A stretch of DNA of 64,000 bases from an uncultured Holophagales bacterium (GCA_963842525.1 CAWJGT010000034.1:288001-352000), one strand, 5' to 3'. Numbered from the stretch's first letter, positions 25,491 to 31,400 are shown. The notes: generated by a model from the letters alone, not told the origin. Numbers and translations are program-made.

Positions 25491-28400
25491 AAGCTCGAGG
25501 GCATGATCGGCCTGTTCGTGAACATGCTGGTCCTGCGCGTCGATCTCTCGGGAGATCCCACCGGCCGGGAGCTGCTGGGACGCGTGCGCGAGGCGGCCCT
25601 GGGGGCCTACGCCCATCAGGACATCCCCTTCGAAAAGCTCGTCGACGCTCTGCAGCCTGAGCGGGACGCCAGCCGCTCGCCGCTCTTCCAGGCCGTCCTC
25701 GTGCTCCAGAACACGCCGGACACGCCGGAGATCGCCCCTGGGAGGCCGGACCTGAGCCTCGACGACGTCGAGAGCGAGCGCAGCTCGGCGAAGTTCAACC
25801 TGACCCTCGATCTCGTCGAGGCGCAGGACGGCCTGCGCGGGGTCTTCGAGTACAGCCGCGACCTGTTCAACCGGACGACGATCCGCCGCATGCTGGGCCA
25901 CTTCGAGGCGCTCCTCGCCGGCATGGTGGACGCCCCCCAGGCCCGGATCTCCAGCCTGCCTCTGCTCTCCGCCGCGGAAAGCCACCAGATCCTCCTCGCC
26001 TGGAACGATACGGCCGCGGCGCGCCCCCCAGGGGCCTGCCTGCACGGCCTCTTCGCCCTCCAGGCGCAGCGGTCTCCCGCGGCCCCCGCCGTCACCTTCG
26101 AGGGGCGGACGCTCTCCTACCGCGATCTGGATCTCCTGTCCGGCCGCCTGGCCTCCCGACTCCTGCATCTGGGGGTCGGGCCCGATACGGCCGTGGGCGT
26201 GCTGATGGAGCGCTCGGTCGAGATGGTGGTCGGCCTGCTCGGCATCCTCCGCACCGGAGGCGCCTATCTGCCGCTCGACCCCGACTACCCCGCCGAGCGG
26301 CTCGGCTGGATGATCGCCGACGCCCGCGTGCCGGTGCTCCTTGCCCAGGAACGCCTCCTGCCGGCCCTGCCGCCGACGGAGGCCCGGGTGCTCTGCCTCG
26401 AAACGGGGTGGGAGGGCCAAGGAGAGCCCGAGGTCCGGAGCGAAGCATCCGACCAGAATCTGGCCTACGTCCTCTATACCTCGGGCTCGACCGGCCGTCC
26501 CAAAGGAGCGATGGTCCCGCACCGCGGCATCGTCAACCGCCTGCTCTGGATGCAGGAGGCCTACGGCCTGACCGCCGCGGACCGGGTGCTCCAGAAGACT
26601 CCGTTCAGCTTCGACGTCTCGGTCTGGGAGCTCTTCTGGCCCCTCCTCACCGGTGCGCATCTCGTCGTGGCCCGGCCCGGCGGGCACCGCGATCCCGCCT
26701 ACCTGAGCGACCTGATCGAGCGCGAACGGGTGACGGTGATGCACTTCGTTCCGTCCATGCTCCAGGCTTTCCTGGAGGAGCCGGACCTCTCCGGCTGCGC
26801 CAGCCTGCGCCTGGTGGCGGCCAGCGGCGAGGCCCTCACGCCCGAGCTGCGCCGCCGCTTCCGGGAGCGGCTCGCCGCCCGGCTGCAGAACCTCTACGGC
26901 CCGACCGAGGCGTCGGTCGATGTCACGTCCTGGAGCTGCGACGAGGAGGCCCGCGGTGGCATCGTCCCGATCGGCCGGCCGGTCGCCAACACCCGCATCC
27001 ACCTGCTCGACCGGTCGTGGCAGCCGGCGCCGACCGGCGTGCCCTCCGAGCTGTGCATCGGCGGCGTGCAGCTCGCCCGCGGCTATTGGAGCCGCCCGGA
27101 CCTGACGGCGGAGCGCTTCGTGCCCGATCCCTGGAGCGAGGCGGCCGGAGGGCGGCTCTATCGCACCGGCGACCTCGCCCGCCACCTGCCCGACGGCGCC
27201 GTCGAGTACCTCGGCCGCATCGACTTCCAGGTGAAGGTGCGCGGATTCCGCATCGAGCTGGGCGAGATCGAGTCGGTCCTCGCCTCCCATCCCGGGCTGC
27301 GGGAGGTGGTCGTCGTGGCGCGGCGCGAGGCGGACGGCGACAGCCGGCTCGTCGCCTACGTCGTCGCGAAGGACGAGCCTGCTCCGGCCCCTGCTCCGGA
27401 AGTGGCCGGCCTGCGCGCCTTCCTGGCCGAACGGCTGCCGGACTACATGGTGCCCTCCGCCTGGGTCGAGCTCGCGGCTCTGCCACTGACGCCCAGCGGC
27501 AAGGTGGACCGCCGCGCGCTGCCGGCTCCCGAGGCGCTCGCGGCGGATCCCTCCGCCTACACCGCGCCCGGCACCCCGATCGAGCAGGTGGTTGCGGGGA
27601 TCTGGGCTGAGATGCTGCGGGTCGACCGGGTCGGCGCGGAGGCCAACTTCTTTGCGCTGGGCGGCGACTCGATCAAGGCGGTGCGCCTGGTCAATCGCAT
27701 CAACGAGCGGCTCGCCTCGGACCTGCGGGTCCAGGACGTCTTCAAGCACCAGACGGTCGGCGCCCTGGCCGCGCGGGTCCAGACCCGGGCGGAGAGCTCG
27801 GTCGCCGGAGAGCTCGCGGCCGGCCGGGCCGAGATCGAGCGGCTGCAGCGCGCGGTCCTGGCCGACGAGCGGCAGCGCGGGCGCCTGCCCGCCTTCTGGG
27901 AGGACTTCTTCCCGCTGAGCGGCATCGAGAAGGGGATGATCTACTACACCCTCCTCCTGCCCGATCAGCCGGTCTATCACGACCAGCACATGTACCTGTT
28001 GTCGATCCCCGACCCGGACCGCTTCTTCCGCGCCCTCGGCCTGCTCACCGGGCGCCACCCCATCCTGCGCAGCACGTTCCATCTCGACGAGCTCGATGAG
28101 CCGATGAAGGTGGTCCATCGGGCCGTACCGGTGACCCGCGAAGTCGAGGACCTCTCGGGCCGGCCGGCCGGCGAGCAGCGGCGCAGGATCGACGAATACC
28201 GGGCCGAAGACCTGCGCCACAAGTTCCTCTTCCAGGGAGAGCTGCTCTGGCGCCTCAAGCTCTTCCGCCTCGACGGCGATCTCCACGCCTCGGTCTGGAC
28301 CTGGCACCACGCCATCCTCGACGGCTGGAGCAACCTGACGTTCTGGCTGGACCTCAACGAGCTGCTGGCGCGAAAGGACCTCGACCGCCTCGACTCCGCG

Positions 28401-31400
28401 CCGCCGCTCGCGAGCAGCTACAAGGACTATCTGGCGATCACCCTGGGGAGGCGCCGCTCCGCGGCCACCGAGGCCTTCTGGCGCGAGACCCTCGCCGGCG
28501 TGAGCCGCAACAAGCTGCCCTTCAACCGGGCGCAGACCCACGGGGGGGCCACCTTCGGCATGCGGTCGCTCAACCGGCCCCTGTCCCCGGAGCTTCTGGG
28601 GAGCCTGCGCGGGCGGGTGGCTTCATTGCAGGCGCCGCTCCAGGCGCTCTTCCTGGCCGCTCACCTGCACCTGCTGCGTGTGACCTCCGGCGAGGAGGAC
28701 GTGGTCACGGGTGTGGTGTCGCACGACCGGCCCGAGATCCCGGACGGCGACAAGATCGTCGGCTGCTTCCTCAACACCTTCCCGCTCCGCCTGCGGCTGG
28801 AGCCCACCGAGAGCGGCGCGGCGCTGATCCGCCGGGTCGGACGCTACCTGGCCGCGGAGAAGGAACACGAGATCCCTCTGGCCGACATCGCCGCGATCGT
28901 CGGCGCCCGGGAGTCGGCCCAGAACCCGATCTTCGACACGCTGCTCAACTTCATGGACTTCCACCTCATGGAGGAGGTGCGGGAGAACGTCCTCTTCCAG
29001 CCCATGGGAACGGGGCGGTCCTCCGGTCTGCCGAGCGTCGAGCTCGAAGAGATGACGAACACCCTGTTCAACGTCGAGGTCTCGGTGACGTTGAGCCATC
29101 CGTCGCTCCGCATCAAGTACTCGCCGCGGCATTTCGACGCTGCGGACGTCGAGCGGGCGGCGGTGCTGTACGAGCGGATCCTGGAGGCTCTGGGCCGCGA
29201 CCTGGAGGCCCCACTGGACACCGGATCGCTGCTGTCACCGGCCGAGCGCGAGCAGCTCGTCCAGCTCTACAACGACACGGCCCGCGACTACCCGCGCGAG
29301 CGGCCGTTGCACAGCTTCTTCGAAGAGCAGGCGGCCCATCACCCCGAACGGACCGCCGTCGTTTCCGGCGGCCGGTCTCTGACCTACGGCGAGGTCGAGC
29401 AGCAGGCCAACCGGCTCGCCCGCCACCTGCTCGCCTGCGGCGTCCAGCCGGGCGACAACGTCGGCGTCTGCTTCGAGCGCTCGCCCGAGCTGGTCGTCGC
29501 CCTGATGGCCGTGCTCAAGGCCGCCGCGGCCTATGTGCCCCTGGAGCCGTCCTATCCGCCGGCCCGCAAGAGCTACATCGTGTGCCAGTCCGGCGTCCGG
29601 CTCCTCCTCGCCGACCGGGAGCACGAGCTGCCGGCCGAGGTGCTGGTCTTCGATCCCGCGAAGCTGGAGAGCTACAGCGACGATCTCCTGTCGCTGCGTC
29701 CGCGGCCGGAGGATCTGGCCTACACCATCTACACCTCGGGCTCCACCGGCACACCCAAGGGCGTGATGATCGAGCACAACAGCGCGGTCAACCTGATCGG
29801 GTGGGTCAACCGCGATTTCCCCGTGGGCCCCGGTTCCCGGGTGCTGATGCTCTCCTCGGTCTGCTTCGACCTGTCGGTCTACGACATCTTCGGCACCCTC
29901 GGGGCCGGCGCCACGGTGGTTATTGCACGGCAGGAGGAGGTCCAGGACCCGGCGGCCCTGCTGCGCCTGGTAACCGGGCAGAAGGTCACCTTCTGGAACT
30001 CCGTCCCCTCCACGCTCGGCCTCCTGGTGCAGTACCTGGAGGAGACCGATCCGGGCTTCCGCGGCGAGGACCTGCGGATCGCCTTCCTGAGCGGCGACTG
30101 GATTCCGCTGTCGCTGCCTGAGCGGGCTCGACGGTTTTTCCCCAACCTGCGGGTCATCAGCCTGGGCGGCGCCACCGAGGGCACCGTCTGGTCCATCTTC
30201 CATCCCGTCGAGAGGATCGACGAGGCCTGGCTGAGCATCCCCTACGGCAGGCCGCTGGACAACAACACCTTCTACGTCCTCGACAGGAGCCCCGGGCTGG
30301 TCCCGGCGGGTGTGGTGGGCGACCTCTATATCGGCGGCGTGGGCGTGGCCCGCGGCTATGCCGGAGATCCGGAGAAGACGGCGGCCTCCTACGTGCCAGA
30401 TCCGTTCTCGGGCCCTGGACAGCGGCTGTACCGCACGGGCGATCTGGGACGGATGCTGGCGGAAGGCGAGATCGAGTTCCTCGGTAGGAGCGACCACCAG
30501 GTCAAGATCCGCGGCTTCCGCGTCGAGCTGGGCGAGATCGAGAGCCAGCTCTCCCGGGCTCCCGGCGTGCGCGAGGCCGTGGTGCTGGCCCGCGCCGACC
30601 GGGCGGGACAAAAGTACCTGTGCGGCTACGTCGTCGCCTCCGGGGAGACCCCCGGCGAGGGATCAACCGGGGCGCTCCAGGCGCATCTGGCCGCGTCGCT
30701 GCCGGGCTACATGATCCCGGACACCTTCGTCTTCCTCTCCGAGCTGCCGCTGACGGCCAACGGCAAGATCGACCGCAAGGCCCTGCCCGAGCCCGAGGCG
30801 GCCCATGCCGCCGGTGAAGCCCATGTGGCCCCGGCCGGCGAGGTCGAGGCGGCCCTGGTGGAGATCTGGGAAGAGGTGCTGGGCCTGCCCGGCATCGGCA
30901 CCACAGCGGACTTCTTCGCCCTGGGAGGGCACTCCCTCTCGGCCATCCAGGTCCTGACCCGGGTGCGCCGCCGCTTCGAGGTCGATCTGCCCCTGCCCGA
31001 CTTCTTCGACAGCCCCACAGTGGCCGGGCTCGCCGCCGCTATCGAACGGCTGAGGGGGGCGGGCGCCGCGGCCCCGCCGCTCGTCCGGCGCGAACGGCCG
31101 GAGCGGCTGCCGCTGTCCTTCGCCCAGGAGCGGCTCTGGTTCCTCGACCGGCTCCAGCCGGGCAGCCCGTTCTACAACCTGCCCCTGGCCATGGAGGCGC
31201 ACGGCGCCCTGTCCGTGCCCGCGCTGGCTGCCAGCCTCGGCGAGGTCGTCCGCCGCCACGAGGTGTTGCGCACGTCCTTCCCCGTCATGGCTGGCAATCC
31301 GGTGCAGCTCATCGCACCCGCCCTCGACGTGGCGCCTCCGCTGGTGGATCTGGGCTCCTTGCCCGCGGAATCCATCACGGCCGAGGTGGGCCGGCTGACT

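Follow-up and report, generated by a model that had tools for sequence, protein, structure and literature searches.

Some condensation (C) domains of nonribosomal peptide synthetases (NRPS) modify the amino acid that they condense (CmodAA) and convert a Ser residue to dehydroalanine (Dha). Described members are AmbE (7R9X), McyA C2 (8JBR), Crz1-C2 and AlbB C2/C3. They follow Ser or Thr modules with GGDSI carrier domains and take any downstream partner. In the published set the signature [K/R]SVLLAAH has Lys or Arg in 50/50 domains and His in 48/50, a nearby Thr is present in 82%, and the C6 motif starts with an Arg pair (first position 96%, second 78%) of which every domain has at least one. 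AmbE mutants in R1605 and H1632 are impaired, and the R1605 mutant lost activity (PMC11342130). Here we describe Cx, a C domain related to this group, which is encoded in a 64-kb stretch of DNA from an uncultured Holophagales bacterium (genome G000, contig C34, positions 288001-352000; hereafter the window). Cx stands between a Ser-type and a Cys-type adenylation (A) domain and belongs to a clade whose pairing with a Cys-like A domain on the acceptor side is obligate.

Transient Dha in nonribosomal peptides is known to lead to AMB, nocardicin, pyrrolizidines, bleomycin, cyclocarbamates and salinazinone A; in the available part of the review that lists these fates, the captures are by nitrogen only and a thioether is absent (PMC10880069). 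The Dha-capturing C domains (NocB C5, which forms a β-lactam, domains of the BlmVI-C2 type, which carry out conjugate addition, and the pyrrolizidine-forming domains) resemble what is proposed for Cx in that elimination is followed by attack of a nucleophile of the incoming residue (PMC10880069). They differ in that these nucleophiles are nitrogens, and in that domains of the BlmVI-C2 type have lost both His of HHxxxDG (Phe plus Gly or Ala; PMC11342130), whereas Cx keeps both. Heterocyclization (Cy) domains, such as those of EpoB, BmdB, HMWP2 and PchE, share with Cx a dedicated Cys-type acceptor. Their Asp acts as a thiol base (PMC8807600, PMC9547227); in HMWP2 the dyad is D1862/T1830 with Q1864 as helper (PMC9547227). 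In lanthipeptides, Ser or Thr is dehydrated and a Cys thiol is then added, as is proposed for Cx, but the peptides are ribosomal, the enzymes (LanB or LanM with LanC) are unrelated, and the rings are larger.

In the literature searched, as far as it was available, no NRPS-made lanthionine or thioether and no Cys-coupled modAA subclade was found, although the published set of 50 CmodAA domains may hide a member. The available accounts of chitinopeptins (PMC9248904), (iso)pedopeptins, cryopeptins (PMC12181424) and marinocyclins (PMC13676389) contain no case of Ser or Thr, Cx and Cys; in marinocyclins, dehydrobutyrine is followed by Leu (PMC13676389).

The Cx clade and its partner modules

The cassette A(Ser)-T(GGDSIK)-Cx-A(Cys-type)-T-LCL, in which T is a carrier domain and LCL a C domain joining two L-residues, occupies a single 7.4-kb frame that is open throughout (window 25272-32729, plus strand; Table 1). 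An earlier interpretation made from the DNA alone, the sequence-only reading, had proposed this succession of Ser A domain, GGDSIK carrier, divergent C domain and Cys-type A domain (DLYNFSLVWK), and all four are indeed found on the plus strand in that one frame. The Ser-type A domain lies just upstream of the start of the span it gave, 27560..30800. A second cassette, 73% identical, is located at ~577-583 kb on contig C3 of the same genome, where A(Ser)-T(GGDSIK)-Cx-A(DLFNFSLVWK)-T forms part of a 9263-aa open frame in another cluster (L002, ~555686-583474, minus strand). The cassette is not a chance arrangement; it recurs on C3 and in 12 other genomes of the order.

A survey of 300 genomes of the window's order, with Cx-like domains defined by 49-77% identity and E <= 1e-80, identified 23 places, which are spread over 13 genomes with that of the window among them. 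Without exception these places have a Cys-type code downstream, and a GGDS[IM] carrier is likewise present in all 23. Upstream, 11 codes are Ser-type, seven Thr-type and four Asx-type (Asp or Asn), and one is unreadable. A profile of the 23 (alignment A1) was then compared with species-representative genomes, and the best 80 of 267 relatives were kept, as 77 loci. The acidobacterial loci of the two surveys come from the same genomes, so the surveys are not independent, nor are kin independent observations. Because the retrieval patterns, DGD[RK][IM][LVI]GCF and NPxFDT[LI][FL]N[FY], were taken from the C domain, counts of partner codes and of the strand motif described below are unbiased. The close relatives of Cx are from metagenome-assembled genomes of soil Acidobacteriota (Thermoanaerobaculia / Holophagales UBA5704), and the distant ones (30-43% identity) are from Bacteroidota, Paenibacillus and Clostridia. 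Strains in culture that carry the clade belong to Paenibacillus, Chitinophaga, Niastella, Pedobacter and Ruminiclostridium (R. papyrosolvens).

Subtype hidden Markov models (HMMs) served to classify every C domain of G000 and of the retrieved loci. A phylogeny of 122 D-clade C domains and four LCL outgroups was calculated with IQ-TREE in quick mode under LG+G4; canonical modAA domains were recognized in it by motif and Ser/Thr context rather than by a published reference set. The nine canonical modAA domains (Shimodaira-Hasegawa-like approximate likelihood ratio test, SH-aLRT, 100) are sister to a Cx super-clade of 83 domains (100), their joint node has a support of 99, and domains joining a D- to an L-residue (DCL) fall outside. 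Within the super-clade, a main Cx clade of 77 domains (SH-aLRT 99) unites Acidobacteriota, Bacteroidota and Bacillota. The tree thus places the Cx clade apart from, and sister to, canonical CmodAA. The suggestion of the sequence-only reading that Cx was acquired separately finds only loose support, in a clade that is old and distinct.

The downstream A code is Cys-like (DL[YWF][DNS][FLM]S..) in 71/71 readable cases of the main clade, with Asp at position 278 in 47, Asn in 17 and Ser in seven; the six unreadable codes are at contig ends. The upstream A domain is Thr-type in 35 (one code is partial), Ser-type in 25, Asx-type in nine and unreadable in eight, so that the donor is β-hydroxylated or hydroxylatable in 69/69 readable cases. 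A GGDS[IML] motif is present in the upstream carrier of 75/77 main-clade members and of 9/9 canonical modAA domains, and no main-clade Cx (0/77) comes after an epimerization (E) domain. Each of the nine canonical modAA domains has a partner of its own, in no case Cys. Among the six basal members of the super-clade, two have Cys-like partners and four have others. The reverse pairing fails, since some Cys-like A domains in G000 follow LCL or DCL domains. Pairing with a Cys-like acceptor is obligate in the main Cx clade and is kept across three phyla, down to ~38% identity, while the donor A domain swaps between Ser, Thr and Asx types. The canonical members of CmodAA, with which Cx shares its Ser/Thr modules and GGDSI carriers, differ in accepting any partner.

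Two further observations concern the architecture of the clade. In several relatives a single protein has two copies of the donor-Cx-Cys cassette at a distance of two modules: L035 (1653, 8001), L038 (1554, 8001), L093 (8001, 15309), G234:C173 and G299:C193. The doubled cassette is a repeating (Ser/Thr-Cys-X)n design. An Asx-type A domain (DLTK[VI]GE[VI]GK, in one case DLTKVGHIGK) lies directly 5' of one canonical modAA domain and of nine main-clade Cx domains (Table 1), which hints at dehydration of β-hydroxy-Asp or β-hydroxy-Asn.

Sequence features of Cx

A PDB search with Cx matched 36 distinct sequences. The best solved relatives are McyA (8jbr, 3e-48, 168 bits) and the CmodAA domain of AmbE (7r9x, 1.7e-34), and the next matches are PvdL, bacitracin synthase 3 (BacC) and tyrocidine synthase 2 (TycB), at 1e-34 to 1e-30. 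In a FastTree reconstruction of 281 C domains of G000, Cx and its 73%-identical paralog stand beside eight canonical modAA-like domains that share an N-terminal motif of 14 residues. Their donors are Ser- or Thr-type in 7/8 (one code is partial) and Asx-type in 1/8, and a GGDSI carrier precedes all eight. Next in this tree are DCL domains that follow E domains. Its own assembly line has two canonical modAA-like domains, one at window 16540-17883 and one that starts at 63746 and is truncated where the window ends. Cx shares 31-32% identity with these two, which agrees with the sequence-only reading that it is unlike them.

Cx has an intact HHxxxDG motif (HHAILDG), and the second His is retained in 76/77 main-clade members. 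No DxxxxD (Cy) domain is encoded within the window, as the sequence-only reading had noted. No HH motif is present in the N-terminus of Cx, where a second His motif reportedly serves, according to Balibar et al. in 2005, as the hallmark of dual E/C domains. Where NocB C5 reportedly has an extra His, Cx has Trp.

The window's Cx retains three residues of CmodAA, namely the LAAH His, the VVTG Thr and the counterpart of AmbE H1632. Across the main clade, the LAAH His is found in 22/23 acidobacterial and 41/54 other members and the Thr in 72/77; DCL domains have W, F and S at the His, Thr and H1632-equivalent columns. The K/R column holds Lys or Arg in 7/23 acidobacterial members (Q in 15/23, the window's included), 51/54 other main-clade members, 9/9 canonical modAA and 0/29 DCL domains. 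At the first Arg of the C6 pair, 75/77 main-clade members have Glu (Q and D occur once each) and 9/9 canonical modAA domains have Arg; Glu is the DCL state at this column (17/29 DCL). At the column of the second Arg the main Cx clade has a gap. Motif C5 contains a Cys (GCF) in 76/77 main-clade, 0/9 modAA and 2/29 DCL domains, the first of these counts being biased by the retrieval pattern. Cx is related to CmodAA but lacks two of its defining features. The earlier assignment to the dehydrating type stands as far as relatedness goes (McyA and AmbE as best matches, SH-aLRT 99); it does not extend to the K/R column, which is Q, or to the Arg pair, which is H-E.

An acidic strand at the possible position of the Cy catalytic residues

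The strand motif TNT..D.E is present in 76/77 main-clade domains, in 1/49 other D-clade or outgroup domains and in 2/281 C-superfamily domains of G000. The Cx copy on C3 carries the hallmark Asp (TNTLFDLEV). In Cy domains the catalytic Asp and its helper Gln were placed on TPQVxLD.Q, the equivalent strand. This placement was checked on the BmdB alignment: 30 residues separate the VFTS Thr from the YLD Asp, as the numbers T1196 and D1226 require. When A1 was aligned with five Cy domains by hhalign (98.7%), the Asp of the clade fell on the Cy Asp and its Glu on the Cy Gln, and an L-INS-i alignment gave the same register; a third alignment, by MAFFT-auto, is off by two (see below). The column of the Cy dyad Thr holds Asp in Cx. 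The first two alignments suggest that in the Cx clade a donor side of modAA type is joined to an acceptor side with a Cy-like acidic pair, and this combination would be its hallmark. The TNT..D.E strand, the GCF Cys and the Glu in place of the C6 Arg set the clade apart from CmodAA. From Cy domains it differs in its HHAILDG motif, the lack of TPQVxLD.Q, its D-clade position and its restriction to Ser, Thr or Asx donors.

The Asp of GDFT had also been considered as the Cy catalytic Asp, with the GCF Cys of the clade as its counterpart. This assignment is wrong, as the BmdB, EpoB and PchE numbering leads to TPQVxLD.Q.

The donor and acceptor A domains

A codes were read by hmmalign against positions mapped by hand onto motifs A4-A10. 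The donor code DVWHASLVDK differs from the Ser/Dha codes DVWHLSLVDK and DVWHMSLVDK (PMC12283262) at position 299 only. For Cys, the consensus of 74 Cys-activating domains is D235 L236 Y/W239 N278 L/M299 L/M322 I/V330 W331 K517 (PMC12283262), and the acceptor code DLYNFSLVWK fits 8/9 of these positions, having F at position 299 rather than L or M. A FastTree phylogeny of the A domains unites all Cys-like codes in one clade (support 1.0), which has two branches, one holding the canonical Cys A domains of G000 that are partnered with Cy and the other an FSLVWK group with the Cx partners. The acidobacterial Asn278 and Ser278 forms nest among the Asp278 forms. Cys is the best reading of the window's acceptor code. 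No occurrence of DLYNFSLVWK or DLYDFSLVWK was found in the literature searched.

L-2,3-diaminopropionate (L-Dap) was considered as an alternative acceptor on account of an SbnA/SbnB gene pair (C34:368548-370618, minus strand; scores of 388 and 368 bits, each above its NCBIfam cut-off), the sole such pair in the genome, which lies ~9 kb past the end of the assembly line. It was rejected, as the Cys-type pocket has no anionic residue and a Dap code fits another module. The A domain at window 35677-37212 (plus strand) has the code DIWEITADDK, which resembles the Dap code of SulA3, DVWEMNADD (PMC12042044), in its Glu at position 4 and Asp-Asp at positions 8 and 9. This module probably loads L-Dap, and it accounts for the Dap genes beside the line. 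SbnA is above its family cut-off in 0/5 genomes that hold the D278 partner, which also counts against an L-Dap acceptor.

Possible chemistry of the Cx clade

The constant pairing, the donors that carry or can acquire a β-hydroxyl, and the Cy-like acidic strand together suggest that the acceptor thiol takes part in the reaction. We read Cx as a specialized C domain, related to modAA and reserved for a Cys-type acceptor, that most likely dehydrates and whose chemistry would involve the acceptor side chain; we put the chance of this core reading, which does not include the ring, at about even. Cx with its intact HHxxxDG motif would form a peptidyl-Ser-Cys amide and would then eliminate the β-hydroxyl of Ser to give Dha, like its CmodAA relatives. 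Dehydration by the window's own copy is, by a little, the favored outcome. The acidic strand at the position of the Cy Asp and Gln (D-x-E in the relatives, N-x-E here) would then engage the acceptor thiol. The simplest product would be that of conjugate addition of the thiol to the adjacent Dha, a seven-membered 1,4-thiazepan-5-one (cyclo-lanthionine), which for the window's Cx must be called doubtful. An extension to the whole clade is likewise unlikely; its members would be lanthionine-forming C domains of NRPS that carry out amide formation, β-elimination and thiol addition aided by a Cy-like carboxylate pair in one active site, would act on Ser, Thr or β-hydroxy-Asx donors, and would make seven-membered thiazepanones (cyclo-(methyl)lanthionine) in three phyla.

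A number of observations weigh against this reading. C-A pairs may be inherited together without shared chemistry. The Asx-type donors (9/69) can be dehydrated only if they are first hydroxylated. The window's copy has Q where 50/50 published CmodAA domains have Lys or Arg and H-E (KEHE-IPL) where they have at least one Arg, and it is the single main-clade exception to the acidic strand (TNTLFNVEV, with Asn for the hallmark Asp). A MAFFT-auto alignment of 281 sequences has a register that is off by two and places the Glu rather than the Asp on the Cy Asp. The GCF count is biased, as the retrieval patterns include GCF. Outside the Acidobacteriota the partner code has Asp278, in place of the Asn278 of the Cys consensus. 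No LanC-like gene (PF05147) is present in either Cx-bearing cluster or among 25 flanking open reading frames scanned; the genome has 14 matches, none of them on C34, and the nearest on C3, at ~880 and 246 kb, are ~300 kb from the C3 cassette (~580 kb). No characterized product of a Cx-clade member was found in the literature searched, as far as it was available. About nine frame breaks lie within NRPS and polyketide synthase (PKS) domains of the 64 kb (Table 1). Breaks occur genome-wide, with 127/408 C-domain HMM matches being fragments, which suggests assembly error. A homopolymer run of >=5 is present in only 2/8 of the break intervals inspected and accounts for at most these two, and the breaks may come from either assembly error or decay.

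A product with a free thiol would result if Cx were a divergent CmodAA that makes linear Dha-Cys, with a Cys-type partner that is merely co-inherited; the thiol might be used later in metal binding, a disulfide, or spontaneous or in-trans chemistry. The sister relationship to canonical CmodAA, the donor-side residues, the predominance of Ser- and Thr-type donors and the absence of a thioether from the Dha fates in the available part of PMC10880069 are all compatible with this, and the trees of the A and C domains agree in broad outline, which is what co-inheritance would lead one to expect. Such co-inheritance sits poorly with a pairing that persists over three phyla (~38% identity) while the donor A domain is exchanged, and with the nine different partners of the canonical modAA domains in the same genome. 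It would also leave the D-x-E strand at the Cy Asp/Gln position without a role and place a free thiol beside Dha, a reactive pair, and we consider it rather unlikely. A condensation-only, or epimerizing, D-clade domain that yields Ser-Cys appears less likely still. The Q at the K/R column and the H-E in place of Arg-Arg would then reflect the loss of elimination, Glu at that column is the DCL state (17/29), and GGDSI carriers precede E domains too. At the His, Thr and H1632-equivalent columns, however, the clade follows CmodAA and not DCL (W, F, S), 0/77 main-clade members come after an E domain, the donors are limited to β-hydroxy or hydroxylatable residues, and the second His motif reported for dual E/C domains is absent.

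The alignment of D-x-E with the Cy Asp and Gln could also be taken to mean that a thiol activated by the acidic strand attacks the carbonyl of the new amide, giving a (Dha/Ser)-thiazoline without a DxxxxD domain. The partner A domain, which has SLGGATE, does fall in the group that is sister to the Cys A domains partnered with Cy. This reading is highly improbable: HHxxxDG is kept in place of DxxxxD, Asp occupies the column of the Cy dyad Thr, it is left unexplained why donors are restricted to Ser, Thr and Asx, and the line already has a canonical Cy module upstream of the window. It is very unlikely, too, that the acceptor is another small residue or that the cassette is an inactive or decaying copy. 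Phe at position 299 in place of L or M, the Asp278 code of the partners in other phyla, and the atypical window copy (N for D, Q for K/R) in a window with some nine frame breaks would be accounted for. The code nevertheless fits 8/9 Cys-consensus positions, and the pocket has no anionic residues, so that a diamino acid is unlikely (compare SulA3, PMC12042044); the SbnA distribution (0/5 D278 genomes) and the DIWEITADDK module, which explains the Dap genes, point the same way. The 7.4-kb frame of the cassette is intact, and the genome-wide occurrence of breaks (127/408 fragments) suggests assembly error.

Subtypes of C domains serve to predict nonribosomal peptide structures, and members of the Cx clade would now be misread as modAA, with Dha-Cys as the predicted product. 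If the thiol is engaged, as in our reading of Cx, this would be, in the literature available, the first case in which sulfur captures a transient dehydroamino acid on an NRPS, and engineering would gain a new domain that forms heterocycles. Cultured holders of the clade make the idea directly testable, even though the organism of the window is represented by an assembly alone.

The assembly line around the cassette

The plus strand of the window (G+C ~72%) is filled by one hybrid NRPS/PKS assembly line. Domains were mapped with phmmer searches using the window's own domains, and with Pfam on the gaps. The line starts before the window, at ~237 kb on C34, with a fatty-acyl ligase and a starter C domain, and ends past it, at ~359 kb, with an NRPS gene fused to a major facilitator superfamily (MFS) transporter. 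The coordinates of the cassette and related features are given in Table 1.

Table 1. Features of the Ser-Cys cassette and associated elements. Positions refer to the window unless a contig or locus is named.
Feature	Position	Strand	Basis or remark
Donor A domain, Ser-type code DVWHASLVDK	26040-27542	+	phmmer/HMM matches, hmmalign code
Donor carrier (T) domain, GGDSIK at 27660-27677	27579-27812	+	Domain map
Cx condensation domain	27888-29237	+	Pfam Condensation, PDB matches, tree placement, motif states
Cx motif VYHDQ	27972-27986	+	Preceded by 16-residue N-terminal motif at 27900-27947
Cx motif HHAILDG	Within 28302-28331	+	Intact HHxxxDG
Cx motif with Q at K/R column and LAAH, 10 residues	28635-28664	+	
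Cx motif, 12 residues	28701-28736	+	
Cx motif VGCFLNT	28758-28790 region	+	
Cx motif KEHEIPL	28860-28889 region	+	
Cx motif, 11 residues	29049-29081	+	
Acceptor A domain, Cys-type code DLYNFSLVWK, FDLSVYD, SLGGATE at 30159-30179	29298-30812	+	HMM, hmmalign code
Acceptor carrier (T) domain, GGHSLS at 30924-30941	30837-31052	+	Domain map
Downstream LCL-type C domain	31089-32192	+	N-terminal motif; frame break soon after, ~32200-32400
Frame breaks	~13100-13300, 14375-14700, 25112-25140, 25490, 32200-32400, 38141-38241, 46228, 51364-53180, 59151-59177		
Asx-type A domain before dehydrating-type C domain	G000:C3:1535397-1536755	-	
Asx-type A domain before dehydrating-type C domain	L041-L043, L045, L065, L072, L074, L096, L107		

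In related loci, too, the N-terminal motif of the downstream LCL-type domain comes after the cassette. Most acidobacterial cassettes have GGHSLS behind the Cys-type A domain; GGHSLL, GGHSLR and GGNSLS occur there too.

A canonical Cy-A(DLWNLSLIWK)-T module is encoded on the same strand at G000:C34:280653-284630, ~3.4-7.3 kb before the window start, which indicates that in this region the organism employs the ordinary route to thiazol(in)es. Its A domain spans 2.3 kb and so carries an insert.

The last gene of the line (G000:C34:354786-359417, plus strand) encodes a partial C-A-T fused to the MFS transporter. It is followed (359446-360789, plus strand) by genes for a DUF3326 protein and an EamA transporter. 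No thioesterase was seen at this end of the line on C34, past the window.

The window's lineage is uncultured and extremely NRPS-rich, with 408 C-superfamily HMM matches in the 9.95 Mb of G000, of which 281 are full length. Within the window, a Thr-type A domain (DFWNIGMIHK, 17923-19671, plus strand) has a gap of ~165 bases between HMM positions 125 and 136 (18342-18508), which is due to an insert or to a local error. At window 6853-7716 (plus strand) lies a divergent C-like domain whose N-terminus reads (E/Q)GF(R/K)LSP(Q/H)Q..LW. Such domains open several NRPS proteins across the genome (for example C3+433665 and C9+1584670), come right after a protein that ends in an LCL domain, and form their own group in the tree.

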